Assembly: GCA_038889235.1 (NCBI GenBank)
Contig: JAWAHN010000001.1
Coordinates: forward strand, 734,499 to 766,498
Reading direction: 5' to 3'
Origin: Candidatus Jordarchaeales archaeon
GTDB taxonomy: Archaea; Asgardarchaeota; Jordiarchaeia; Jordiarchaeales; Freyrarchaeaceae
DNA length: 32,000 nucleotides
Positions 12,191 to 28,228 of this stretch are shown piece by piece; position 1 is the stretch's first letter, and every line of letters begins with the position of its first letter. Position numbers and translations under genes: made by a program. The notes beneath the pieces were generated by a model. That model was not told the DNA's origin, ran no database searches, and saw only the letters and a list, made by a program, of their open reading frames with translations.

Positions 12191-12224
12191 GAGAAAAACA
12201 GGTTGATTGGAGGTGGTTAAGAAA

Positions 12225-14189
12225 GTGGCTGAAAGAGGAAAGAAGGCAGAGGAGCCGGTCATTGGCGTCTATGTGTGCAAGTGAGGCGTTAACATCGGCG
12301 GAGTCATAGATACAGAAGCAGTGGCAGAGTATGCAAGTAAGCTGCCGAACGTGAAAGTAGCGAAGACATACTCATTCTTCTGCTCTGATCCTGGACAGAA
12401 GATAATAAAAGAGGACATTGAGACCCAAGGAATCAACAGGGTAGTAGTAGCGGCTTGCACGCCGAAAATACATGAGCCAACATACAGGGCATTGCTGCAG
12501 TCGGCGGGATTAAGCCCCTACTATTTCGAAATGGTGAACCTAAGAGAACACTGTTCTTGGGTCCACATGACAGATCCAAAAGCGGCAACAGAAAAAGCCA
12601 AGAAACTTGTAGCTGCAGGCGTGGCAAGAGCTAGACTGCTTGAAGACGTGCCCCAGAAAAAGTTACCTGTTGAACAAGCAGTCATGGTTATAGGCGGAGG
12701 CATAGCTGGTATAAGTGCGGCCCTTAGTGTAGCAAACCACGGGATAAAAGTTTACCTAGTGGAAAAGGAGCCAACCATTGGAGGACTGGCTGTTCGCCTA
12801 GATAGAACTTTCCCAACTGACGACTGTGCTATCTGAATACTGGCGCCGAAAATGGTTGAAGCAGCAAAGCATCCAAACATTCAGATCCTTTCGTACACAG
12901 AAGTTCTTGGAGTAGAAGGGGTGCCCGGAGCATACAAGGTAAAGCTTCTTAAAAAGCCAAGGTATGTGGATGAGAAAAAGTGCACTGGATGCGGCAGCTG
13001 CATGGAAGTCTGCCCAGTTGCAGTACCCGATGAGTTCAACTACGGATTGGGATACAGAAAAGCGATATACATACCATTCCCCCAAGCTGTCCCTAAGGTT
13101 GCACTAATATCGATGGATGACTGCATACAGTGCAAGTCCTGCCAGAAGGAGTGTAAGGCAGGAGCTATAGACTACGAGCAGAAACCGGAGGAAATTGAGC
13201 TAACTGTTGGGAGCATAATAGTTGCCACGGGGTTCGAAATATACGATATAGCTAAGTACGGCGATTACGGCTATGGACGGTTTGAAAACGTCATAACACA
13301 GATTGAACTAGAGAGGATGCTGAGTCCTACGGGACCAACTGGCGGAGCTGTGGTTAGAATTTCAGACAGGAAGCATCCAAAACGCATAGCTATGATTCAG
13401 TGTGTTGGATCTAGGGACATTAAAAGGAATCCTTACTGCTCAGAAGTATGCTGCATGGTCGCAGTCAAGAACGCTAAGATCATAAAACAGGAGAGCCCGG
13501 ATACTGAAGTAATCATCTTTTACATGGACATCAGAGGGATAGATGAAGGGCACGAAGAGTACTATTCGGCTACACGTGAATATGGTGTGATATTTGTGAG
13601 GGGAAGAGTCGCAGAAGTAATAGAAGATCCGGAAACCAAGAATCTCAAGCTTCTCGTTGAGAACACATTGACAGGAGAGCTAATGGAAATTGAAGTAGAC
13701 TTGTTAGTGCTGTCAGCGGCGGTAGTACCTTCTGAGGGAACGAAGAAAATAGCGCAGATCCTGGGGCTCAACAAAAGACCAAGTGGTTTCTTAGCACCAC
13801 AACACGTAGCTTTAAACCCCCAGGAGACGAAAAGCCCAGGAATATACATTTGCGGCGCTGCTTTAGGACCAAAGAACATACCCTATGCCGTTTCGAGCGC
13901 TAGGGCTGCCGCTGCTGCTGCAACGGCATGGGTGCTTTCAGGAGAAGTTTCAGTAGAAATGATGACACCAGAGGTTAACGAAGAACTTTGCGTCGGTTGC
14001 AGAAGGTGCGAAAGAACATGTCCCTTCGGTGCTATAAAGGTCATCGAGGGGAAAGCAGTCGTCAATGATGTGCGATGCAAAGGCTGCGGTTCTTGCGTGG
14101 CGTCATGCCCAGCCCATGCCCTAGACTTACGTTACTACAGAGATAAACAAATAATAGAGGAGCTGAAAGCTGTGATTGAAGCTCACTAA
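12225..14189 (+). CDS. hdrA: Heterodisulfide reductase subunit A, selenoprotein with two Sec (TGA 12282-12284 and 12834-12836), 654 aa
   Basis: GTG 12225 follows a GGAGGTG RBS. One frame reads IGVYVCK-U-GVNIG and FPTDDCAI-U-ILAPKMV, joining track ORFs 12321..12836 and 12852..14189. Both TGAs occupy conserved Cys positions. FAD motif GGGIAG, multiple CxxCxxCxxxCP motifs, and a SECIS-like hairpin downstream. Confidence 0.95.
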
Positions 14190-14274: not shown

Positions 14275-14365
14275 TAACTCATCTACTTATACTCATGCGT
14301 AAACACATTGCAAGAGTAAACGTTTTATAATACTGCTTTTGAAAAAGTCCACCGAGGTGTGGCGG

Positions 14366-14782
14366 ATGGATACGCCGAAATTTAGCATAGTGTCTTTCTG
14401 TTGCTGGAAGTGAGGCTACGGTGCCAGCGATCTAACAGGCGTTTCTAGGGTACAATATGACCCTTCGGTGATGATAGTGCGAGTCAAGTGTACTGGAAGA
14501 GTCGATGTTAAACATATCCTGGAGGCAATAAGGCATGGCGTGGATGGCGTCATGGTTGTCGGTTGACACCCAGGCGAGTGCGATTTTGGTGACGGAAACA
14601 TAAAAGCAAGGCAACGAGTAGAGTTCGCAAAGAAAGTGCTTGACAAAGTTGGTCTTGGAGGAGACAGGGTTAACATGTACAATGTCTCAGCCGCCGAGAT
14701 TGGAAAATTCAGAGATGCAATAGTAGATATGGTTGGAAAAATAGAGAAACTTGGTCCAAACCCCCTGAAAGCCAAAAAGTAA
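14366..14782 (+). CDS. mvhD: MvhD/VhuD-type [2Fe-2S] hydrogenase delta subunit, selenoprotein with two Sec (TGA 14411-14413 and 14564-14566), 138 aa
   Basis: Absent from the ORF track. Reads MDTPKFSIVSFCCWK-U-GYGASDLTGVSRVQYDPSVMIVRVKCTGRVD...VMVVG-U-HPGECDFGDGN...GPNPLKAKK. Both TGAs are at conserved Cys positions of the MvhD family; GAGGTG RBS. Confidence 0.95.
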
Positions 14783-14954: not shown

Positions 14955-16373
14955 TTGATCGATCTTAGATGGAAAGTTGATGCCATTACCGAAGCTGCGG
15001 ATAGCTTTAGAGTCAGAGCGTTCTTCACTGGTGAAAAAGAGATAGTAGAAGCAGGGAAATTCTCTAAAGAAGAGTACGAGAAATATTTAGACTACCTGCT
15101 AGAGGACGAGTACAGTAGGAGGCTTGTTCTCAGGGTCATTAGGGAAAAAGGAAGTATTACCTTTAACGAAATAGCTCGTGAGCTGGGTATTTCCAGGATT
15201 GAAGTTGCCAGACACGTTGGCTTACTGAGATACGAGGGATTAATCGAGCTTAAGGAAAACGAAGTTGTAGTCGCCAAGAGTGAGGTGTTGCAGAGGACAC
15301 CCTATGAAAAAATAAAGTTCATTGTCGAGGAAGGATTGTGCACTGGGTGCGGCGGATGCATCGCAGCTTGTCCTGTTCGGGCTATAACCTTCGTCAATGA
15401 AAAGCCCGTAATAGACGAAGAGAAGTGCATAGGTTGCGGTATTTGCAACGTTCATTGTCCAAGGACGTTTTTCCCCATGAGCTTTCTCAGGGAGAGTTTG
15501 AAGGGGAGCCCGGTAAACTTAGAAGCAGAAGGTATATCTTTCTTTAGGAAGGCGTATATGGCGCAGACAACTAAGGAAAAGATAAGACAAGTTTGCCAGG
15601 ACGGAGGAATTGTAACATCAATTCTGGCCTATCTTTTCGATAAAGGTATGATAGATTGCGCTATTGGTGTCAAGAAAGTCGATGAGACATGGAAAACGCA
15701 AGCCGTAGTGGTTACCAATATAGAGGAGTTGCTCGAAACTGCAGGCACTAAGTACACGGTAACTCCAACTATTTCGGCACTTGAAGAAGTCAAAAGAAGG
15801 GGATTGAAGAGAGTTGCTGTTGTAGGAGTACCCTGCCAGATACACGCAATCAGGAAGGCAGAAGCATACTCTTCGGAACTTTTGGCCTCACTAGGAAAAG
15901 TGATCGTTTCAATAGGGATATTTTGCATGGAAAACTTTGGGCATGAAACATTGAGAGAAATAGTTGAGGGACGGCTTGGCGTAAAGATCGAAGAAGTAAC
16001 TAAATGTAACATAGACAAAGGTAAGTTCTTCGTTCGTACAAAAAGCGGAGAGGAGAGGTCAATACCAGTTAAGGAGATATCTGAACTTGCACGACACGCT
16101 TGTCATTACTGCCCAGACCTCTCGAACGAGCTTGCAGACATTTCTGTAGGCTCCATCGGGTCGCCAAAAGGTTGGTCAACTGTAATCGTGAGAACTGAGA
16201 AAGGAGAGGAAATATTTGATGGCGCAGTGAAAGAGGGCTATATAACAGTTAATCCACTGCCGAGTGATGGTATGGATCTACTCCAAAAGTTGGCTAGGGG
16301 CAAGAGAAAGAGGAACCTCGAGACATTAAACAAAAGAGCAGAGGAAAGAAAATATGCAACATTAATACTATGA
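14955..16373 (+). CDS. FrhB/FdhB-family F420-interacting oxidoreductase subunit with N-terminal winged-helix region and 2x[4Fe-4S] ferredoxin domain
   Basis: CTGCGGCIAACP and CIGCGICNVHCP; QDGGIVT, AGTKY, VGVPCQ, IGIFCME, CHYCPDL and ADISVGS motifs; residues ~55-100 form an HTH (ITFNEIARELGISRIEVARHVGLL). Confidence 0.88.
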   Translation: MIDLRWKVDAITEAADSFRVRAFFTGEKEIVEAGKFSKEEYEKYLDYLLEDEYSRRLVLRVIREKGSITFNEIARELGISRIEVARHVGLLRYEGLIELKENEVVVAKSEVLQRTPYEKIKFIVEEGLCTGCGGCIAACPVRAITFVNEKPVIDEEKCIGCGICNVHCPRTFFPMSFLRESLKGSPVNLEAEGISFFRKAYMAQTTKEKIRQVCQDGGIVTSILAYLFDKGMIDCAIGVKKVDETWKTQAVVVTNIEELLETAGTKYTVTPTISALEEVKRRGLKRVAVVGVPCQIHAIRKAEAYSSELLASLGKVIVSIGIFCMENFGHETLREIVEGRLGVKIEEVTKCNIDKGKFFVRTKSGEERSIPVKEISELARHACHYCPDLSNELADISVGSIGSPKGWSTVIVRTEKGEEIFDGAVKEGYITVNPLPSDGMDLLQKLARGKRKRNLETLNKRAEERKYATLIL

Positions 16374-16402
16374 ATCATTCCATTTTTAACGGATAAAAAA
16401 AA

Positions 16403-17533
16403 TTAGAAATGTTTAACGATAATGTTTCCTTCATTGTCTTCTAGTGTAACCTGATATTTTTCGGCTTGCACATTGTAATCAAATGATTTTTCTTCGTTGG
16501 GAAGCAATTCGGCTATGCCATAAACATATGGTTTGACTTCAAATAGTTCTTCTTTAATTGCATTCACACGTACCGTGACACCCTTTAGAACTCTGGAAGA
16601 CACATTTTTGACAATGAATTTTACCTTCGAGTCCTCCCTTTTTACTGAAATTACAATGGAGTGGGGGTCTAGCGGTTTAAATGGTTTAGCTTTCTCAGCT
16701 GCTTCCTCAAATATTTTCTCTACTACCCGTTCTTCTGTAACAACATTTATTGGAATCTGGAACATTACGGATTCCCCACTAGTTCTTAGGCATTCTACTT
16801 CAAGATACCACCTGGAATACGCTCCGAACACTAGAGACCAGAAGGTAACCTCTGGAGGTTCCCAGAGATAGTTATAACTCGGCTCCGCATAAGCAGGTAT
16901 CTTTATCGTTACGACGCCTGACCCTGGATTCAATTCCTCAACAGAAAGAACTTTCTCCTTAGGGTGCCTTTTAACGTACGCGCACACAGTCTTGTACCGG
17001 GGACAAGCGCACGTTATGTTAGACTCGTGAATTAGGTCGACCTTCATCGTCCTAACATTTTGTACAGAGTATTTTAGTTTAATTTCTTCTCCTGGTTTAA
17101 AGGTGTCCTTCTCTAAAGAGAAGGACATTCCTTTAATATTCATGGAGACTGGCGTCGCCTCGGCAAAAACCCTGGCTAATAATGTTACGGGTTTTTCAGA
17201 GGATAATCGCCATTCTTCTTCCCGCGTGCCAGGCTTTTTCATGGAGAGTATAGCTCTCAAGAAGTAGCTAACCTTGTTGGGAATTGATGGAACAACGCGC
17301 CTGCTAATTACTAGCTCTCGTGAACGCACATATTCGCCTTTTTTGAGTTCACCTTCGCAGAAGATATTACTGTTAGCTACGGTTAGCTCGTTTCCGCAGG
17401 GAAGTTTTGTGAACAAAGAAATGTTACCGTTCCATATCTCCGTGTCACTGTCTATGTCGAAGACAGCTTTAACTTTTAATGAACCACCTACTTCTGCAAC
17501 GTCCCCCGAAAACAACCTTATCGACATAGCCAT
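16403..17533 (-). CDS. Putative arrestin/Vps26-fold protein with an extra C-terminal beta-sandwich domain
   Basis: Two tandem beta-rich repeats ending in arrestin-like patterns (VVPSIPNKVSYFLRA; AEPSY...SRWYLEVE...FQIPINV; EKDTFKPGEEI). Fold assignment by pattern only. Confidence 0.55.
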   Translation of the reverse strand: MAMSIRLFSGDVAEVGGSLKVKAVFDIDSDTEIWNGNISLFTKLPCGNELTVANSNIFCEGELKKGEYVRSRELVISRRVVPSIPNKVSYFLRAILSMKKPGTREEEWRLSSEKPVTLLARVFAEATPVSMNIKGMSFSLEKDTFKPGEEIKLKYSVQNVRTMKVDLIHESNITCACPRYKTVCAYVKRHPKEKVLSVEELNPGSGVVTIKIPAYAEPSYNYLWEPPEVTFWSLVFGAYSRWYLEVECLRTSGESVMFQIPINVVTEERVVEKIFEEAAEKAKPFKPLDPHSIVISVKREDSKVKFIVKNVSSRVLKGVTVRVNAIKEELFEVKPYVYGIAELLPNEEKSFDYNVQAEKYQVTLEDNEGNIIVKHF

Positions 17534-17559
17534 AACCCAGGAAAGTTTTTAGAGGGAGG

Positions 17560-18474
17560 CTATCTTTCTGCATGCGCTCTTACAACAAGATCTGCAAATA
17601 CTTCCATATCCTTTAACAGTGTTCTTATTTTTTCTTCATCTTCTTCTCTAAGTTTACCAGTCTTCATTATGATGACTGCCAGGATGTACTTGAAGAGATT
17701 CAATATTAACTCCTTACTTCCGTCTATGGGTTTCCCTGTAAAGACTGCTGAGTCTGCCATGAAGAAGTTTTCTCGGAGATTGTTGCAAGCTACAATGAAG
17801 TCCCTTAGGTCAACTCTAAGCTGTAAGCCAGTACTTACTCCCTGAACATTGTGGACGATAACATTACCGGCAGTATCGCTTATAATCACCTTTGCAGGTA
17901 TTTCCGCTAATTGTTTTTGCGCGTTTTCAAGGTGTTTTTGAAGCTCTTCATAATGAGCCACTAAAATATCCCTAAATATTTCAGCGAGCCTTTCTTGCTC
18001 GTAAATAGAAGTTACATAATATTTTGCGCCCCATTCGTCAAATATTTCGCTAAAAATGCGTTTGGCGTCATTCAGGTTTTTCTCTAACAGCTCTTTGGCA
18101 TAATCCTTAGAGTCGTATTTGTGCAAGAAGACGTAAATGGTAGGCTTAATTCCCTCCTTTTTGAAGAACTCTAGGACTTTTTTGAAATAGTTTTTAGCAG
18201 CATCAAATTTCTCTGGACTGTGGAGGTCTATAACAGGGATGAGAATATCTGTTCCAGCAAAGACTTTGGGGTCCTCTAAATACGACTCGATGTATTGTTC
18301 TTGTCCTCCAAAGTCAAATAAGCTAATGTCGAGGCCTAAAAACGGGTGTCGGCGCACTTCGTACATAACTGTGGGAGCAATTCCCTTCGTCTCCTGAGGT
18401 TTTTTACCAGCAAATGTGGTGAGATATATGCTAGTTTTTCCACTACCAGCTAGTCCTATAAGTGATATTTTCAT
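17560..18474 (-). CDS. Rag/Gtr-like small GTPase with C-terminal roadblock/longin-like domain
   Basis: G1 GLAGSGKTS, G2 APTV, G3 DFGGQ and G4 LHKYD (the HKxD form typical of Rag/Gtr). The C-terminal ~120 aa starts VIISDTAGNVIVH and ends in a helix. Confidence 0.8.
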   Translation of the reverse strand: MKISLIGLAGSGKTSIYLTTFAGKKPQETKGIAPTVMYEVRRHPFLGLDISLFDFGGQEQYIESYLEDPKVFAGTDILIPVIDLHSPEKFDAAKNYFKKVLEFFKKEGIKPTIYVFLHKYDSKDYAKELLEKNLNDAKRIFSEIFDEWGAKYYVTSIYEQERLAEIFRDILVAHYEELQKHLENAQKQLAEIPAKVIISDTAGNVIVHNVQGVSTGLQLRVDLRDFIVACNNLRENFFMADSAVFTGKPIDGSKELILNLFKYILAVIIMKTGKLREEDEEKIRTLLKDMEVFADLVVRAHAER

Positions 18475-18539
18475 CCAATTCCCTCCTTTAATTTACCGGC
18501 TTAAAAAAGGAAGAGATGACAGCTTTAAACGTTTCCATT

Positions 18540-20039
18540 TTACTCTTTGCCCTCTGTCTCCTTTTTTCCTCCTTTTTCAAGTTCAGCTAAGGAGAGGCGC
18601 TTTACGAATATCGGACCTCGCTTAGTGGCGACCCTTATCATGTATTCTCTATCATTTGGCATGCGCGGATACCTAAACTCGAGTTCTTCTGAGGGGTGCC
18701 ACATCTCGATGTCGGTCGTCCAAGCATTTGTTTCAAAGAATTCGTCAACATGGGATATCCGTACATTTAAATCGTAAAGAACTTGCCCTGAATTGTTTTG
18801 AAGAATAACTAGAAACTCTTGTCCATTGCTTGTCAATGACGCGTTCGCTATCTTAATTGGGGGTTTAACGGATGGCGCAACAACTTCAACGGCTTCCTTT
18901 TCAAGTGGTATAGGGCCAGCCCGCAATTCTAGTTCGGCCAGCGGCACTCCAGGGACTCTTACAACGTATGTTCGCCGCTTCTTGGTGGTGTAAAGCTGAA
19001 CTTTTTTAATCCTTGCTAGGTTAAGGACGCTTGTAAGACCCTTCCTATCAAGCGGCTCGAGTTCGATGTAACCATTATCCATAGCGTTAAATAAGAGTTC
19101 TAAGGCGATAGGAGATCTCACGAGAACAGTTGAGTATCCTTCAGGAGTGCCAACGCTGCCGACGGATATGTCCGCGTCCTCGGAAGTTAAGTCAGAACAG
19201 AAATAACAACTTGGTGCTCTGTACTTGTCTAACTTGCTCAACGGGTATGATGCCACTTTACCTTCACCGTAGTAAATGTTAAACTTTCCAGCTGAGATAC
19301 TCATCTTCGAAATAGATGCTAAGGGTATGCCCTCTTCTTCTTCGAAGAAGGATTTTAGACCCTCGTATGAAAAGGCATCCATGCAGAACAATCCTATCTT
19401 CAGTATATTTGCCTTCATTAAGAAGCGAAGCATTCCAGCGGGGAACTGGTATATTTTCTTTACTGCAGAAATGTTGCATGGAGTGCCGACAAATGCTAAA
19501 GATTTTAGACCTCGCTTTATAGCGTCAACTAGAGCTTTAACAGTATAGCTGTGCGAATAAACACTGCCAGCACCTTCCAGTATTTCTTCCTCGGTAGTGG
19601 CTATAGTTGCTACAGGTTTCCAAGGCTCTTCTTTACTTTTGTGAGTTACTATTGCTCCGTCAATCAACCCCTCTCTTAGAGCATAGAGAAGCAGTCCAGT
19701 AACTACTCCACCATCCTGCCCGTGAACACCATTGATTTTGCATTTGGCTTTGTAAGCAGATATGAAACACCCTATTAAGTCATTTACATGGGTTTTCGTT
19801 CGGGGGCAAACATTGTAACATACACCACATGCCGTACATTTTCCCTTAAGCGTCGGCTTCCCATTAACCATCTCTAGCGCGTTTTCGGGACAAGATGCTA
19901 CACAGGCTGTGCATTCTGTGCAAACCCCAGAAAGTATAACGTGACTTTGAAGGCGAGAAAAGTTTTCAAACTTTCTCTCTTTCAAAACGCGCTCTGGATA
20001 GAAGTAACTCACCTGCGCTTCTTCGTTGGACAACGACAA
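18540..20039 (-). CDS. Second FrhB-family oxidoreductase (ferredoxin + FrhB) with a ~100-aa C-terminal beta-sandwich appendage
   Basis: CTECTACVASCP, CTACGVCYNVCP, GQDGGVVT, VGTPCN, IGLFCMD, CYFCSDL and DISVGSVG. Residues ~394-494 are homologous to the C-terminus of 27119..28228. Confidence 0.88.
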   Translation of the reverse strand: MSLSNEEAQVSYFYPERVLKERKFENFSRLQSHVILSGVCTECTACVASCPENALEMVNGKPTLKGKCTACGVCYNVCPRTKTHVNDLIGCFISAYKAKCKINGVHGQDGGVVTGLLLYALREGLIDGAIVTHKSKEEPWKPVATIATTEEEILEGAGSVYSHSYTVKALVDAIKRGLKSLAFVGTPCNISAVKKIYQFPAGMLRFLMKANILKIGLFCMDAFSYEGLKSFFEEEEGIPLASISKMSISAGKFNIYYGEGKVASYPLSKLDKYRAPSCYFCSDLTSEDADISVGSVGTPEGYSTVLVRSPIALELLFNAMDNGYIELEPLDRKGLTSVLNLARIKKVQLYTTKKRRTYVVRVPGVPLAELELRAGPIPLEKEAVEVVAPSVKPPIKIANASLTSNGQEFLVILQNNSGQVLYDLNVRISHVDEFFETNAWTTDIEMWHPSEELEFRYPRMPNDREYMIRVATKRGPIFVKRLSLAELEKGGKKETEGKE

Positions 20040-20139
20040 GCTCTTTCACCACCTTAAACCAGAAGGACGCCATAAATTTCAGAAAATATAGACGAGTAAG
20101 TTAGATATAAAAATTATTGAAGGAAGCGCTTTTGCGCCG

Positions 20140-22689
20140 TTAATTGCTCGAGCTGCTTTTTCTCTGCAGAAAGCTTAACATTATTAATGACAGCGTGAAC
20201 ATGCTGAGGAAAACGGGAGGCAGCCAAATGTTTCTCTGAGTAATTATTAGAGGAAGTTCTAGGACTAGTTTGTGCTCGGTGATCAGCAGTGAAACTACAT
20301 CAGACATGTATGTTTCTCCGTTCCCTGTTACAGCTACCGCATAAATGAGTACTCGGTCATCTCTAAGTTTTAGCGTATCAAACTGAAGAGATGCAACGTT
20401 TCCTAGTGAAGTGTTGGTGAAATTTTCTCGATCAGTTACTACCATAATTGTTAAGCTTACGATGTCATAAGGATGCGTTGCTGTAACGTTTAGAGAAACT
20501 GTTTTGCCCTTTTCTACTTTCGTTGGAAGGGTGATGTTAAATTGTGGTGGAGTCGGGGAGTTAGCGAGCCACTTACACAGAGATTTGAATAGTTGAACAT
20601 TATCTTTCTCCAGTATAACATCGTCCTTCAAAAAATCAAGATCCGAAAGGAATGCCACTCTCCCGCGCCCCCAGTTTATGCAAGATCCAACTATTATAGA
20701 TTCTTGAGCGACAATTATGGGTCTTCCACCATCTATTTTCCCATGGTCTTTCAGAAGAACCTCTTTTGCCCTGAACGTTTGAGGGGACTTAATACATCTG
20801 GCGGTTGTAAAGCCTGTTTTGCTGCAAATTGAAAACGACACATTGAAAAGTGATGAGAGGATATTTAGGTATTCCAACGAGTCGGGATCATTTTCTCCTA
20901 TTAGCAAAAGTCCGCCTCCAGACATCACAAAGTCAAGTATCGCACTAACCTCACTTTCAGTGTAGTTCCGTGAGGGACAATATATCACAAGTATGTGAAA
21001 TCCTTCAAGGACTTCTGGTGTCACTTGGCTGTCGTAGAGTGCTTGGAAGTAGAGGAGACTCGCATTTAGTATGGCCCTAAGCTTTGACGTGTTGTTCCAG
21101 AATTCCATGTAGTGGGAGCTTTCATGGTGGTATTCGTCGACAAGTATCCTTATTGGGGTACCGACTACAATGGATGTTTGAGCGGGAGCGAAACCTTCCT
21201 TAGTTACTGTTACGACATATACTCCCTGTTCTGGACATGGAAAGTGTATTTCTCCGTTTTTATCCGTGAGATAGACTCGGTAGTAGTCTCGTCCCTGTAA
21301 ACATACGAGGGCACCACTAACAACACTGCTTCCGTCTGAAACCTTAATTATTGCCCTCTTTCCCGGAGCCAAATTTCCTTCAACTGAAATTTTCAGGTCT
21401 CTCATTGGTCCACAGCATATTGGCACTTCTGGGTCTCCTAGGAGAATGTACTCGACAAACAGTTGAGCGCGATTTACATCGCGCTCAACTAAACTTCTGT
21501 GAGTTAAGTAGAACTCTTTCTTGGACTCGTACAGTGCATACCCCGGACGGTGGGTGAACGGCGGACTTGAACTGAAGAAAAGCTTGAAAAAGAGGTGATC
21601 GAGAAACGTGTCTGCGGCGTCATCAATAGTATCACCGCCAAACGTTATTCTAGTTGGCGCTATAACAGCTATAGCGCCACCGCAAGGGTTTTTCAGTAAA
21701 GCTTCAGCAATGGAGTCACTTGAGTAATCTATGCGTCCTGCTTCACATGCCGATATGAAGAACAGCGGGAGACGAGGGCCATTAGAAAGTCGGGCGGCAG
21801 ACGCTGAGTTTAAGAAAATGGGAAGGTGAGAAGAGCAGTAAAGTGCCGTAGGGCTTCCGTGAGAACATATATCAACTATTGAGGCGCCCCCCTCAACTAT
21901 TTCTATAAAACTCGTGAGGTTGCTAAAATTTCTTTTAGTGTCATAAGCAAGGAGTATCATTTCTAACGGGGGTAGAGGTATGGATCCGACGGATGCAAGC
22001 TTAGCCCTCCACCCTTGAATGTCTTGCAATGAATTTATTTCGCCACCTGCGAGGACAAACTTGTTAAGCCATTCAGTGTTATGCATGTAGAGGTATTTTT
22101 CGTAAGTTAACGTCTTATTTATGAAGACATTTAACTCGTCGGTTGTGGAAACAGGTATCCTTCCCACGTAAAGTTCAGGCATCCAATCTATTTCTCCGGG
22201 CTCACCGTATTCTCCATCCATATCGTTGTCGAATGAGCCGTCGAGAGCAGCGTAGTAGTAGTCCGATGGCACTTTATTAGTACCAATAGTAAAGTTTCTT
22301 ATCGGAACTTTGTCGACGTCTCCTACCAGGAGAACCCATTGTATCCCTTTTGAACGGTATAAGTCTTTTAGAAAGTTACGTATTTTTGAAGCATTATCTT
22401 CTCCTGCATAGTTCTGGTATATGTAGTCGGTAGTGTATATCTCCGTTGGGATGCCTTTATATGTTTTCCATTCGGCGAGTGGAGTAACGGCATTAACCCA
22501 GTTTGAGTCACCTAATATGATCACGTACTTAGTGATGTTAAAAGTTAACAATGCAGGAGTGTATGGAGGGGGGACAGGAGAAAGCTGGTGAAACGAGTAG
22601 ATTTGCAGGGGTTGGTTTGGAACAAGTAAAGATAGCGCAATAAGTGCTAAGAAGAGAGGAAGCCAAGTTTTTTTGTTCGTTTCGAACAC
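20140..22689 (-). CDS. Secreted, membrane-anchored C25 (gingipain-like) cysteine peptidase
   Basis: N-terminal signal peptide; AEWKTYKG, VLLVGD, SDYYYA and LYVGRIP motifs; catalytic SHG and SACE; later GGGLLLIGE domain; C-terminal transmembrane helix with a basic tail. Confidence 0.85.
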   Translation of the reverse strand: MFETNKKTWLPLFLALIALSLLVPNQPLQIYSFHQLSPVPPPYTPALLTFNITKYVIILGDSNWVNAVTPLAEWKTYKGIPTEIYTTDYIYQNYAGEDNASKIRNFLKDLYRSKGIQWVLLVGDVDKVPIRNFTIGTNKVPSDYYYAALDGSFDNDMDGEYGEPGEIDWMPELYVGRIPVSTTDELNVFINKTLTYEKYLYMHNTEWLNKFVLAGGEINSLQDIQGWRAKLASVGSIPLPPLEMILLAYDTKRNFSNLTSFIEIVEGGASIVDICSHGSPTALYCSSHLPIFLNSASAARLSNGPRLPLFFISACEAGRIDYSSDSIAEALLKNPCGGAIAVIAPTRITFGGDTIDDAADTFLDHLFFKLFFSSSPPFTHRPGYALYESKKEFYLTHRSLVERDVNRAQLFVEYILLGDPEVPICCGPMRDLKISVEGNLAPGKRAIIKVSDGSSVVSGALVCLQGRDYYRVYLTDKNGEIHFPCPEQGVYVVTVTKEGFAPAQTSIVVGTPIRILVDEYHHESSHYMEFWNNTSKLRAILNASLLYFQALYDSQVTPEVLEGFHILVIYCPSRNYTESEVSAILDFVMSGGGLLLIGENDPDSLEYLNILSSLFNVSFSICSKTGFTTARCIKSPQTFRAKEVLLKDHGKIDGGRPIIVAQESIIVGSCINWGRGRVAFLSDLDFLKDDVILEKDNVQLFKSLCKWLANSPTPPQFNITLPTKVEKGKTVSLNVTATHPYDIVSLTIMVVTDRENFTNTSLGNVASLQFDTLKLRDDRVLIYAVAVTGNGETYMSDVVSLLITEHKLVLELPLIITQRNIWLPPVFLSMFTLSLIMLSFLQRKSSSSN

Positions 22690-23808: not shown

Positions 23809-25589
<1,781 letters not shown>

Positions 25590-26637: not shown

Positions 26638-27099
26638 GTGCAAAACGAGAAACGCTCCTTTTCCATTTTGGACATCGCTATGAGAGAAATAGTCACCTGC
26701 AACGAGGACGACAGCTTGAGCAAGGTAGCTCAACTTATGGTCGACAACTGGGTGAGCAGCGTATTTGTTGTTAACCATGAGGGGAAGATCGTAGGAATAA
26801 TAACAGATGGAGCAATATTTAGATTGATAGCAAAAGAAGAAGACCCGCGGAAATATAAAGCCAAAGACATAATGTTTCGTGACATAATTACTGTTAGCGA
26901 AAACGCATCGCTTGATGAAATCAAAGATTTGTTCGAAAAAACTAAGATAAAAAGGGTCGGAGTAGTCGACAAAAATGGAAATATTATCGGAGTAATAAGT
27001 AAGAAATGGATTAATGGATTTAAGAGATATGCGCGCTACTATAACATAGAACTTCAACCCGTATCTTCACCGTCCCAAGACAAAACGGAACAATACTAA
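26638..27099 (+). CDS. CBS-pair domain protein
   Basis: Two CBS repeats (SVFVVNHEGKIVGIITDGAI; RVGVVDKNGNIIGVISK). Confidence 0.88.
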   Translation: MQNEKRSFSILDIAMREIVTCNEDDSLSKVAQLMVDNWVSSVFVVNHEGKIVGIITDGAIFRLIAKEEDPRKYKAKDIMFRDIITVSENASLDEIKDLFEKTKIKRVGVVDKNGNIIGVISKKWINGFKRYARYYNIELQPVSSPSQDKTEQY

Positions 27100-27118
27100 G
27101 GTACATTGAGGGTTAAGG

Positions 27119-28228
27119 ATGGTTGAACGATCGCCAGGCTCCCCGGCTAATGAAGACGTAGAGATGATTTCTCTGGAGAATAGAGAAGGAAGTGATGAAA
27201 CTATTTTCTATACGAGAAGTTTCTTCCCATACGAGTTCGTTGAAATATATTTATGCTGTTTTCACGAGACAAAGGGGCACTTAATACTTTTTGCCATACC
27301 TAACGAGCTGAAGAAAAACAAATCAATCATTAGGCTCCTCCAACGACATCCCGTTTGGTGGTTGGATGCTAACGAATTTAAGGAAAACGTGGATCACATC
27401 GACATGGAATTCGGCGGGAAAGTGTATTCTGCAACGAAATTTACTGCGAAATCCCTTAGGAAAAAAGAGAGAGCGGGTACAATAGAGTCAGAAGAAGTTT
27501 TCGTGCTCATAGTAAGCACTCCCGCTGCTGTAGCAAAACCCCTGGGTGAAGAACTTCTCAAAGTACTAAAAGAGAAAATACAAGAGAAAATGCACGAAAG
27601 CCTTTATATACTTATTTTAGCTGAAGAAGCTAATTTCAAGCCTATTAAAAGCGAGAAAGACAGAGAGATAATAGAGGAGGGCAAACGAGTAACAGCTATG
27701 CTAGAAGAAATATGTGCCTCAGCGATACCTGAGATCTCTCGAAAAATTGTGGAGTCACTTCAGTTTGATGCTGAAAAACAAAAAAGTCTTGTTTACTTTA
27801 TTCTCAGTCAAATTTACAAAGAGCAAAAACCAGTAAGAAGCGTCACTCTCTCTGAAGCGACAACGAAACAGAACCAAGTTGAACTGGTGCGTGAAAACCC
27901 TGTGGAGTTGGAGAGTATAGAGCTTATTGATCACGGGAAAAAACTTAAGATAACAATTAAAAATTCTTCTGAAAAAGGGCTCGAAAACATTAGAATAACA
28001 ATAAGTCACATACAAGATTTCTTTGAAACTTACTCGTGGTCAACTAATGTGGAGTTATGGTTCCCGCTAGAAAGCCTCGTCTTTGTTTTTCCGCGAGTAG
28101 ACAATAATGGAGAGTATATAGTTAAGGTAGAAAATGCGACAAGAAACCTTCTGCTAAAAAGAATATCGGTGAAGGAACTGTTGAAAAAAGGAAAAGGCGA
28201 AGTAGAAAGAATAGAAGACATATATTAG
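27119..28228 (+). CDS. Putative uDENN/longin-like protein with C-terminal beta-sandwich appendage
   Basis: EIYLCCFHETKGHLILFAIP resembles the first strands of uDENN/longin domains (xFD-x3-GP-x5-P). The C-terminal residues 261-361 are ~36/101 identical, ungapped and counted by hand, to the tail of 18540..20039. Confidence 0.55.
   Translation: MVERSPGSPANEDVEMISLENREGSDETIFYTRSFFPYEFVEIYLCCFHETKGHLILFAIPNELKKNKSIIRLLQRHPVWWLDANEFKENVDHIDMEFGGKVYSATKFTAKSLRKKERAGTIESEEVFVLIVSTPAAVAKPLGEELLKVLKEKIQEKMHESLYILILAEEANFKPIKSEKDREIIEEGKRVTAMLEEICASAIPEISRKIVESLQFDAEKQKSLVYFILSQIYKEQKPVRSVTLSEATTKQNQVELVRENPVELESIELIDHGKKLKITIKNSSEKGLENIRITISHIQDFFETYSWSTNVELWFPLESLVFVFPRVDNNGEYIVKVENATRNLLLKRISVKELLKKGKGEVERIEDIY

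Follow-up and report, generated by a model that had tools for sequence, protein, structure and literature searches.

The 32,000 nucleotide (nt) stretch of DNA analyzed here, referred to as the window, is from contig JAWAHN010000001.1 of a Candidatus Jordarchaeales archaeon and has a unit of three co-oriented genes on the minus strand (positions 16403–20039). These genes encode an FrhB-type iron-sulfur (Fe-S) flavoprotein, a Rag/Gtr-type GTPase and a protein with an arrestin/Vps26 fold. The flavoprotein and the arrestin-like protein end in a common domain, here called the appendage. A third appendage-bearing protein, called the third carrier, is encoded elsewhere in the window, next to a gene for a CBS-pair protein. 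Homologs of named origin put this DNA in the Asgard lineage Jordarchaeia/Freyarchaeota. The five genes, with product lengths in amino acids (aa), are the following.

18540..20039, minus strand: FrhB+appendage gene (P0001), 499 aa, from the open reading frame (ORF) listing
17560..18474, minus strand: Rag/Gtr-type GTPase gene (P0002), 304 aa, from the ORF listing
16403..17533, minus strand: arrestin/Vps26-fold+appendage gene (P0003), 376 aa, from the ORF listing
26638..27099, plus strand: CBS-pair protein gene, 153 aa, Pfam CBS 1.4e-27, 19 nt upstream of the third carrier gene
27119..28228, plus strand: third carrier gene, 369 aa, found by BLASTP and by hidden Markov model (HMM)

An earlier note on this DNA had described three co-oriented genes with gaps of 65 and 26 nt, and the ORF listing gives exactly these gaps. 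The same note had the unit converge on an hdrA-mvhD-frhB cluster; this plus-strand cluster is present once TGA is read as selenocysteine. The FrhB+appendage ORF has a TTG start and is preceded by GGTGGTGA, a ribosome-binding-like site.

The FrhB+appendage protein displays, in order, a 2x[4Fe-4S] ferredoxin domain, an FrhB flavin/[4Fe-4S] core, a flexible linker and the C-terminal appendage. The first two are at these positions.

19797..19931, minus strand: ferredoxin-type 2x[4Fe-4S] domain, aa 37–81, Fer4 matches in Pfam
19044..19754, minus strand: FrhB_FdhB_N + FrhB_FdhB_C core, aa 96–332, Pfam

The Pfam matches to the core are FrhB_FdhB_N (PF04422) at 8e-23 and FrhB_FdhB_C (PF04432) at 3.3e-42. 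All eight cysteines of the ferredoxin domain (C40, C43, C46, C50, C68, C71, C74 and C78) are invariant in 24 orthologs. The FrhB [4Fe-4S] cluster cysteines C188, C219, C278 and C281 align with those of Methanosarcina barkeri FrhB. All 12 cluster cysteines and the GQDGG motif (107–111) are invariant in the 24 orthologs, down to 41% identity, which shows the redox core to be under purifying selection. The closest relative in the PDB is M. barkeri FrhB, a true F420-reducing hydrogenase beta subunit (6qgr_B, E 5e-51), with an identity of ~45% as counted from the printed alignment. Further relatives are 8riu_B, a 370-aa FrhB-family chain (1.9e-50), and the F420-dependent sulfite reductase Fsr (7e-44). 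The FpoF-type NCBIfam model covers positions 33–346, and the protein scores under the NCBIfam cut-offs for both FrhB and FpoF (TIGR03289, 211 vs. 331.5 bits; PRK09325, 251.7 vs. 269 bits). No FrhA is found above cut-off in the genome, where the best FrhA-like match has 168.8 bits vs. 392.5. Since the scores are below the FrhB and FpoF cut-offs and there is no FrhA above cut-off, the protein is best read as a stand-alone FrhB-type module and not as a hydrogenase subunit. No Fpo or sulfite reductase partner is present near the gene. F420 is a plausible cofactor or substrate because this genome has matches over the respective cut-offs for the biosynthesis genes cofG, cofE and cofD. Binding of FAD and F420 is suggested indirectly, by the ~45% identity to FrhB, the invariant GQDGG motif and these biosynthesis genes.

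The second gene encodes a GTPase with a G domain at aa 1–173 and, in the structural model, a C-terminal alpha/beta (roadblock) domain behind it at aa ~194–302. The G domain contains G1 (GLAGSGKT, 7–14), G3 (DFGGQ, 54–58), G4 (HKYD, 118–121) and G5 (TSIY, 155–158). Positions G7, G10, G12, K13, T14, D54–Q58, H118, K119, D121, T155, S156 and Y158 are invariant in 41 orthologs, and I157 is nearly so. The roadblock domain is conserved like the G domain (mean majority fraction 0.76 vs. 0.74), and orthologs across the Asgards have identities of 55–89%. The family assignment is based on profile, PDB and fold rankings. Pfam Gtr1_RagA (PF04670) matches at 1.3e-22, with 80.8 bits vs. a cut-off of 22, far better than Arf (40.8 bits), Ras (28.6 bits) or Roc on the same protein. 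A phmmer search of the PDB ranks LokiRagO (8yl2), RagA and Gtr1 above RagC/D, followed by Arl8. Foldseek searching with the model aligned ~300 columns to full-length RagA, Gtr1, Gtr2 and 8yl2, and also matched RagC; 8yl2 is the best PDB match both by sequence (E 9e-21) and by fold. The unit holds one Rag-like gene only, and a heterodimer partner is not evident there. Other ~300-aa GTPase ORFs are present elsewhere in the genome. A phmmer search found no paralog, but the idea that this is the only small GTPase of the genome is ruled out by 13 Ras-type and 12 roadblock matches. No Ragulator/EGO, GATOR1, FLCN or TORC1 components are recognizable among the window proteins.

The arrestin-like protein consists of two beta-sandwich lobes (aa 1–265), a disordered linker (270–284) and the appendage (aa 293–376). 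Its AlphaFold model has a confidence (pLDDT) of 84. Foldseek matches the model to VPS26C, VPS26A/B and arrestins (E 5e-12 to 1e-8, probability 1.0), with a template modeling (TM) score of at most 0.58 by target. In the ESM Atlas the lobes match ARRDC3-like, Spo0M/arrestin and Vps26 clusters (TM 0.5–0.66). The best Pfam match is Arrestin_C at E 0.075, 13.8 bits vs. a cut-off of 27.7. The protein is filed on its model as a predicted arrestin-fold protein and not as a member of the Arrestin_N/C or Vps26 families. Across 20 homologs, with identities as low as 27%, only 17 columns are invariant, and four of these are cysteines. They are located as follows.

17396-17398, minus strand: C46 in the N lobe, invariant in homologs
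16982..17011, minus strand: C-x-C-x6-C motif (C175, C177, C184) in the C lobe, invariant in homologs

A metal or Fe-S site, or redox-active thiols, would be a reasonable interpretation of these four cysteines in such a redox setting. The AlphaFold confidence is lowest around the C-x-C-x6-C region.

The appendage is a beta-sandwich of ~100 aa that forms the C-terminal end of the FrhB, arrestin-like and third-carrier proteins. The three copies in the window are the following.

18570..18866, minus strand: copy 1, FrhB protein, aa 392–490, by BLASTP, HMM and structure search
16406-16657, minus strand: copy 2, arrestin-like protein, aa 293–376, by HMM
27119..28228 (gene), plus strand: copy 3, C-terminus of the third carrier, by BLASTP and HMM

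The tail of the FrhB protein matches the tail of the arrestin-like protein with a BLASTP E value of 1e-5, and that of the 27119–28228 ORF with 36% identity over 103 aa (E 2e-22). When a small HMM of the appendage is compared with the 2.14-Mb genome, exactly three ORFs match. The linker before the appendage is of low confidence or flexible-looking in both the FrhB and the arrestin-like proteins. The nearest structures in the Atlas are the tails of Asgard proteins of 344–346 aa (TM 0.85–0.88), followed by DUF11, CARDB and GH2 sandwiches (TM 0.64–0.77), and in fold the appendage resembles the immunoglobulin-like sandwiches of the CARDB/DUF11/GH2 type. On the appendages of the window proteins every Pfam model stays below its cut-off, GAE_BBS1 (0.015) included. 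A profile built from 28 copies and searched against 1.84 billion cluster representatives gave 137 hits. The recognizable architectures among these are third carriers (37), arrestin-like proteins (17), FrhB proteins (8) and one CBS fusion; the others are short fragments or weak matches on CARDB repeat proteins (CARDB/GAE-type tail). With the appendage region as sole query, a word-indexed search for homologs returned only four proteins. The appendage is nearly private to this set of proteins.

These results agree with what had been read earlier from the sequence for each protein, i.e., that the FrhB copy retains its ferredoxin and FrhB cluster cysteines and has gained a shared appendage, that the GTPase is Rag-like with an HKxD G4 and a C-terminal roadblock, and that the third protein of the unit has an arrestin fold.

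The N-terminal ~260 aa of the third carrier belong to no named family. A longin/uDENN-like identity was considered and is unsupported by Pfam, by PDB profile searching and by hhalign: no Pfam family recurs among 33 members, a profile of the 33 homologs has zero matches in PDB sequences, and alignment by hhalign to the GTPase alignment, roadblock domain included, gives a probability of 0.1. The sole lead is an Atlas feature match of 0.86 to a cluster with NPR2 in 19% of its members. In the present genome the CBS and third carrier pair is ~7 kb from the unit and inverted (26638–28228). A natural fusion of 641 aa (P0183) joins the third carrier and its appendage to four CBS domains, and this links the third carrier and CBS components; the fused long form recurs at locus L069 (2251–4182). 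The CBS gene and the third carrier, which in relatives are within the same gene string, also belong to the module, of which the earlier note had covered a part only.

Gene order was compared in two sets of genomes. In a sample of 151 Asgard genomes, with a threshold of E <= 1e-30 for GTPase orthologs, an ortholog is found in 40, all from five families. In 27 of the 30 best loci the next gene upstream of the GTPase, on the same strand, is FrhB+appendage. All 11 genomes that belong to the order of the window, and several further ones, have the arrestin-like gene as the next gene downstream. The second set comprises 80 further loci of named species, 76 of which are informative, i.e., have enough upstream sequence. 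Gene-neighborhood conservation across Asgards, which the earlier note had proposed as a check and whose lack would have refuted its reading, is strong: in 69 of the 76 the GTPase ortholog has an FrhB+appendage gene as its direct upstream neighbor. An arrestin-like gene is adjacent in 21 loci and within 6 kb, non-adjacent, in 32 more. Other genes within 6 kb of the GTPase in the 80 loci are the third carrier (14), CBS (13), HdrA (12) and the C25 peptidase (9). The loci are labeled Jordarchaeia, Freyarchaeota, Helarchaeota, Promethearchaeota/Loki, Hermod-, Thor- and Odin-. In Jordarchaeales and Helarchaeota-labeled genomes there is a co-oriented string of CBS, third carrier, C25 peptidase or a second CBS, FrhB+appendage, GTPase and arrestin+appendage genes. 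The CBS gene is syntenic in Jordarchaeia, in Helarchaeota-labeled genomes and in one further family (f21). Identities between this genome and Loki-type genomes are 55–59% for the GTPase, 42–45% for the FrhB+appendage protein, ~30% for the arrestin-like protein and 22–32% for the third carrier. Because these identities are so low, the gene order has outlived a deep divergence.

The appendage is present in 45 of the 151 genomes, with a modal number of three copies per genome, and these 45 include 39 of the 40 GTPase-positive genomes. Both the GTPase and the appendage occur in the same five families and neither is found in 21 others; as the co-occurring genomes are kin, this is a pattern and not a statistical test. 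The sole genome with the GTPase only (G019) has an ortholog that is split into two overlapping frames by an apparent frameshift (L054, 7803–8790), and no appendage-bearing gene is found anywhere in that genome. This may represent co-decay of the module.

A variant arrangement is present in three genomes of family f21 (G106, G118 and G138). Here the appendage is carried by an NfnB/GltD-like protein (Fer4_20 + Pyr_redox_2), whose gene follows NuoE-, NuoF-, NuoG/Fdh- and NfnA-like genes (L039, 9271–15802; also L040 and L042). The cluster adjoins the GTPase, the CBS gene and the third carrier. No FrhB+appendage and no arrestin+appendage gene is found in the three genomes, and two third-carrier paralogs are present. 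The NfnB/GltD-like protein with its appendage reads as a non-orthologous replacement of the FrhB protein, which is hard to explain without a common partner. Folds, cofactor-binding residues, the shared domain, gene order and co-occurrence are established, and it is well supported that these genes represent a conserved functional module.

Several putative transcription signals can be read from the sequence alone.

20083..20113, minus strand: TATA-like boxes, AT-rich, candidate promoter of the unit
18475..18539, minus strand: FrhB-to-GTPase spacer of 65 nt; TTTAAAG box, T6 run, AGGAGG ribosome-binding site
16395..16402, minus strand: T8 run, archaeal terminator-like, directly 3' of the stop codon of the arrestin-like gene

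The TATA-like boxes fall in an AT-rich 100-nt gap upstream of the FrhB+appendage gene, and the AGGAGG site before the GTPase gene is strong. No transcription signal is obvious on reading of the 26 nt between the GTPase and arrestin-like genes. In 56 other loci the FrhB-to-GTPase spacer is 44–137 nt (median 81) with zero overlaps, and a run of five or more T is present in 16 of these. In contrast, the GTPase-to-arrestin junction is tight in related loci, with a median gap of 27 nt. An internal promoter or a partial terminator is possible in the FrhB-to-GTPase spacer, which may hold a conserved regulatory element or internal promoter. A single transcript for the three genes is plausible; an internal promoter for the GTPase gene is equally possible. 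A scan for sigma-70 promoters and intrinsic terminators is not applicable to archaea, and its counts were at the level of shuffled sequence.

The genes that flank the unit in the window include the following.

20140..22689, minus strand: Peptidase_C25-like (gingipain-type) protein, 849 aa, Pfam 2e-61, 100 nt upstream of the FrhB+appendage gene
12207-14189, plus strand: HdrA, 660 aa, whole only with two in-frame TGA as selenocysteine
14339-14782, plus strand: MvhD, 147 aa, whole only with two in-frame TGA as selenocysteine
14955-16373, plus strand: second FrhB paralog, of the hdrA-mvhD-frhB cluster, with winged-helix, ferredoxin and FrhB core

The C25-like protein also has a GIFT/DUF4350-like region, with weak matches to GIFT/DUF4350 and CarboxypepD_reg. 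In nine of nine Jordarchaeales-type loci (L055–L063), and in no other lineage, a C25 peptidase gene separates the third carrier gene from the FrhB+appendage gene. Under translation table 11, hdrA is split into two ORFs (12321–12836 and 12852–14189). The second FrhB paralog has an N-terminal winged-helix (HTH_24/MarR-like) region; it is unusual for a redox module to carry a DNA-binding domain. BLAST alignments to the Loki-type loci L033, L035 and L047 begin at residues 2–8 of this paralog, within the winged-helix region. A gene for tyrosyl-tRNA synthetase (24495–25589) is a few kb from the Rag-like gene, as is also the case in family f21 (L038, L040, L041, L042 and L053); this may be an ancient linkage or chance. 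In some Loki-type loci a HEAT-repeat (PBS-lyase type) gene is directly upstream of the FrhB+appendage gene (L033, 4577–6184).

Our preferred interpretation, to which we give a probability of about one half, is that the three genes form the center of a module that is conserved in, and specific to, Asgards and is organized around a single Rag/Gtr-type GTPase. This module would work by a hub and sensing mechanism. Physical binding, the direction of the signal and its output are what we infer here. The module would have four to five parts: a flavoprotein, the GTPase, the arrestin-like protein and the third carrier (~340 aa), which often has nucleotide-sensing CBS domains ahead of it or fused to it. 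The electron-input Fe-S flavoprotein is usually of the FrhB type, which would oxidize F420H2; in one lineage it is of the NfnB/GltD type, which would oxidize NAD(P)H. The appendage would be a shared docking domain through which its three carriers gather on one hub, most simply the GTPase, or else on one another. The flavoprotein may report how reduced the pool of F420 (or NAD(P)H) is, and the CBS protein may report adenine nucleotide state; both would influence whether the Rag-like switch is in its GTP or its GDP state, with the arrestin-like protein as adaptor or output. The findings lend partial support to the candidate module of the earlier note, in which the FrhB paralog would read F420/flavin redox state and pass it to the Rag-like switch. 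Ligand sensing is argued because CBS domains adjoin or are fused to the third carrier. A more specific version would be a surviving archaeal form of a Rag-centered sensor of metabolic state, with F420/NAD(P)H redox and adenylate charge in and a cysteine-bearing arrestin-like adaptor out, in which the appendage is an unnamed docking domain and the whole is a counterpart, possibly a forerunner, of eukaryotic Rag sensing. This version is put forward tentatively, as the odds are against it in such detail. A complex prediction with the full-length FrhB+appendage protein and the GTPase gave a median score of 0.21 against a mark of 0.32, was made without controls and counts neither way.

There are a number of observations that weigh against a sensing hub. 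Family f13 (L051 and L052, closed genomes of ~2.8 Mb) keeps the FrhB+appendage gene without a detectable Rag ortholog, arrestin-like gene or third carrier, either within 8 kb or by search of the genome. The flavoprotein can therefore function without the switch. In many Loki-type genomes the arrestin-like and third-carrier genes are kilobases away or on other contigs. The neighborhood shows no evident TOR-like kinase or other output. The FrhB-to-GTPase spacer is always 44–137 nt with a frequent T-run, so that the genes are perhaps separately transcribed. Finally, an intact catalytic core is to be expected of a functioning enzyme no less than of a dedicated sensor. A rival is an effector model, in which the flavoprotein is the target of the GTPase. 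With its state set by the third carrier and CBS proteins, the Rag-like protein in its GTP form would dock onto or release the FrhB/NfnB-type module and thereby gate the flow of electrons from F420H2/NADPH into a partner. Every cofactor ligand is kept and the identity to a working FrhB is ~45%, which is enzyme-like and not what a degenerate sensor would show; the sharing of the appendage by two different dehydrogenase modules is as expected for interchangeable catalytic clients; and the hdrA-mvhD-frhB cluster, within 6 kb in 12 of 80 loci as well as in this window, is a possible electron acceptor. In eukaryotes, Rac-GTP turns on the flavocytochrome of the NADPH oxidase. However, the conserved core encodes no electron acceptor, the FrhB+appendage protein persists without the GTPase in family f13, and the same data suit the sensor model. 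We regard gating of this type as rather unlikely.

The proteins might instead assemble or localize a redox enzyme, with no metabolic signal being read. The GTPase, the arrestin-like adaptor and the third carrier would place the enzyme at a membrane patch, a protrusion or an Hdr-type complex, and the Cys4 site would be structural (zinc). Adaptor roles are known for Vps26 and arrestins, and in eukaryotes complexes are localized by small GTPases, those of the Rag type among them; the appendage resembles interaction domains of the ear/GAE type (GAE_BBS1 at a sub-cut-off 0.015, and the CARDB/GAE-type tail hits). Yet no membrane anchor, lipidation motif or transmembrane partner is seen in the conserved core, and the CBS domains, fused or adjacent, point to ligand sensing. 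Such a role for the module is improbable. The least likely explanation, which we consider very improbable, is that the genes are neighbors by inheritance only and have independent roles, with the appendage a generic beta-sandwich that has no common partner. Vertical descent alone can keep gene order in related genomes, the loci compared are from kin and are not independent, and the FrhB-to-GTPase spacer may hold its own promoter. Against this, the pair is kept at identities of 42–45% (FrhB) and 55–59% (GTPase) while the surrounding genes differ, the appendage is essentially confined to proteins of this neighborhood, and presence and absence coincide at the family level. In addition, a different enzyme with the same appendage is found in the same place in family f21, and the CBS fusion exists.

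The conserved module with a Rag-type GTPase at its center has an unprecedented set of partners, which includes redox enzymes and a private docking-type domain. These conserved and unusual partners of an Asgard Rag ortholog group make the open question of its role experimentally tractable. If the coupling is real, it would provide the first concrete functional context for an Asgard Rag, and would suggest that the Rag switch was tied to energy or redox state before it was used in lysosomal amino acid sensing. The questions raised are whether an archaeal Rag reads or gates redox metabolism, whether the appendage represents a docking code and whether the arrestin-fold protein binds a metal cluster.

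Rag GTPases are the amino acid and nutrient switch of eukaryotes. The eukaryotic hub (RagA/C or Gtr1/2, with Ragulator/EGO, GATOR1/SEACIT and FLCN-FNIP) and the present system have in common a G domain with DFGGQ, HKxD and TSI[WY] followed by a C-terminal roadblock, and in both the GTPase is found amid non-catalytic adaptor-type proteins and a ligand-sensing module, here CBS. They differ in that no Ragulator, GATOR or TOR homologs are in the neighborhood, and the GTPase here is accompanied by an Fe-S flavoprotein of the F420/NADPH type, a protein with an arrestin fold and a third, unnamed protein. The appendage matched no eukaryotic Rag-pathway component in the searches made. Compared with MglA/MglB, there is likewise a prokaryotic Ras-superfamily switch with a roadblock-type domain, but the family of the window GTPase is RagGtr and not MglA, and the partners differ.

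FrhB modules that feed F420H2 electrons to a partner, as in the FrhB hydrogenase subunit, FpoF and the N-terminal half of Fsr, have the same ferredoxin and FrhB core with all cluster cysteines. The window protein differs by the added C-terminal appendage and by the coupling of its gene to a GTPase gene. The Rac/phagocyte NADPH oxidase system is an analog in the way it works only, in that a small GTPase is coupled to a flavoprotein that uses a reduced nicotinamide-type cofactor and adaptors assemble the complex; the protein families are unrelated, there is no homology, and the comparison is drawn from general knowledge. Vps26 (retromer/retriever), the alpha-arrestins TXNIP and ARRDC3 and Spo0M-type proteins have the same two-lobed arrestin fold as the window protein, which has in addition a tethered beta-sandwich and four invariant cysteines. 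Of these known arrestin-fold proteins, TXNIP engages a redox protein via cysteines. In the arrestin-domain proteins found earlier in Asgards (Lokiarchaeote CR_4, Hermodarchaeota), the N- and C-terminal domains reportedly come from separate genes.

Among the signature proteins known from Asgards are Rag-like GTPases as well as roadblock and arrestin-domain proteins, and Asgard RagGtr GTPases have already been described (Tran et al. 2024, PMC10933270; Vargova et al. 10.1101/2024.02.28.582541), with the roles of the Rag-like proteins reported as unknown (Tran et al. 2024, PMC10933270). No link of any of these signature proteins to FrhB, F420 or an arrestin-fold neighbor was found in the literature searched, which did not cover every journal. 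Two Loki Rag-like paralogs have been crystallized, 8yl2 ('LokiRagO') and 8zla/9m28 ('LokiRagM'). LokiRagO is of the same family and architecture as the window GTPase, but has an identity to it of ~27%, vs. 55–60% for the Loki-type orthologs; because of this difference the crystallized Loki proteins are considered to be paralogs. The small-GTPase genes of strain MK-D1 are generally outside operons with regulators (Tran et al. 2024, PMC10933270), whereas the GTPase ortholog group described here has a conserved neighborhood.

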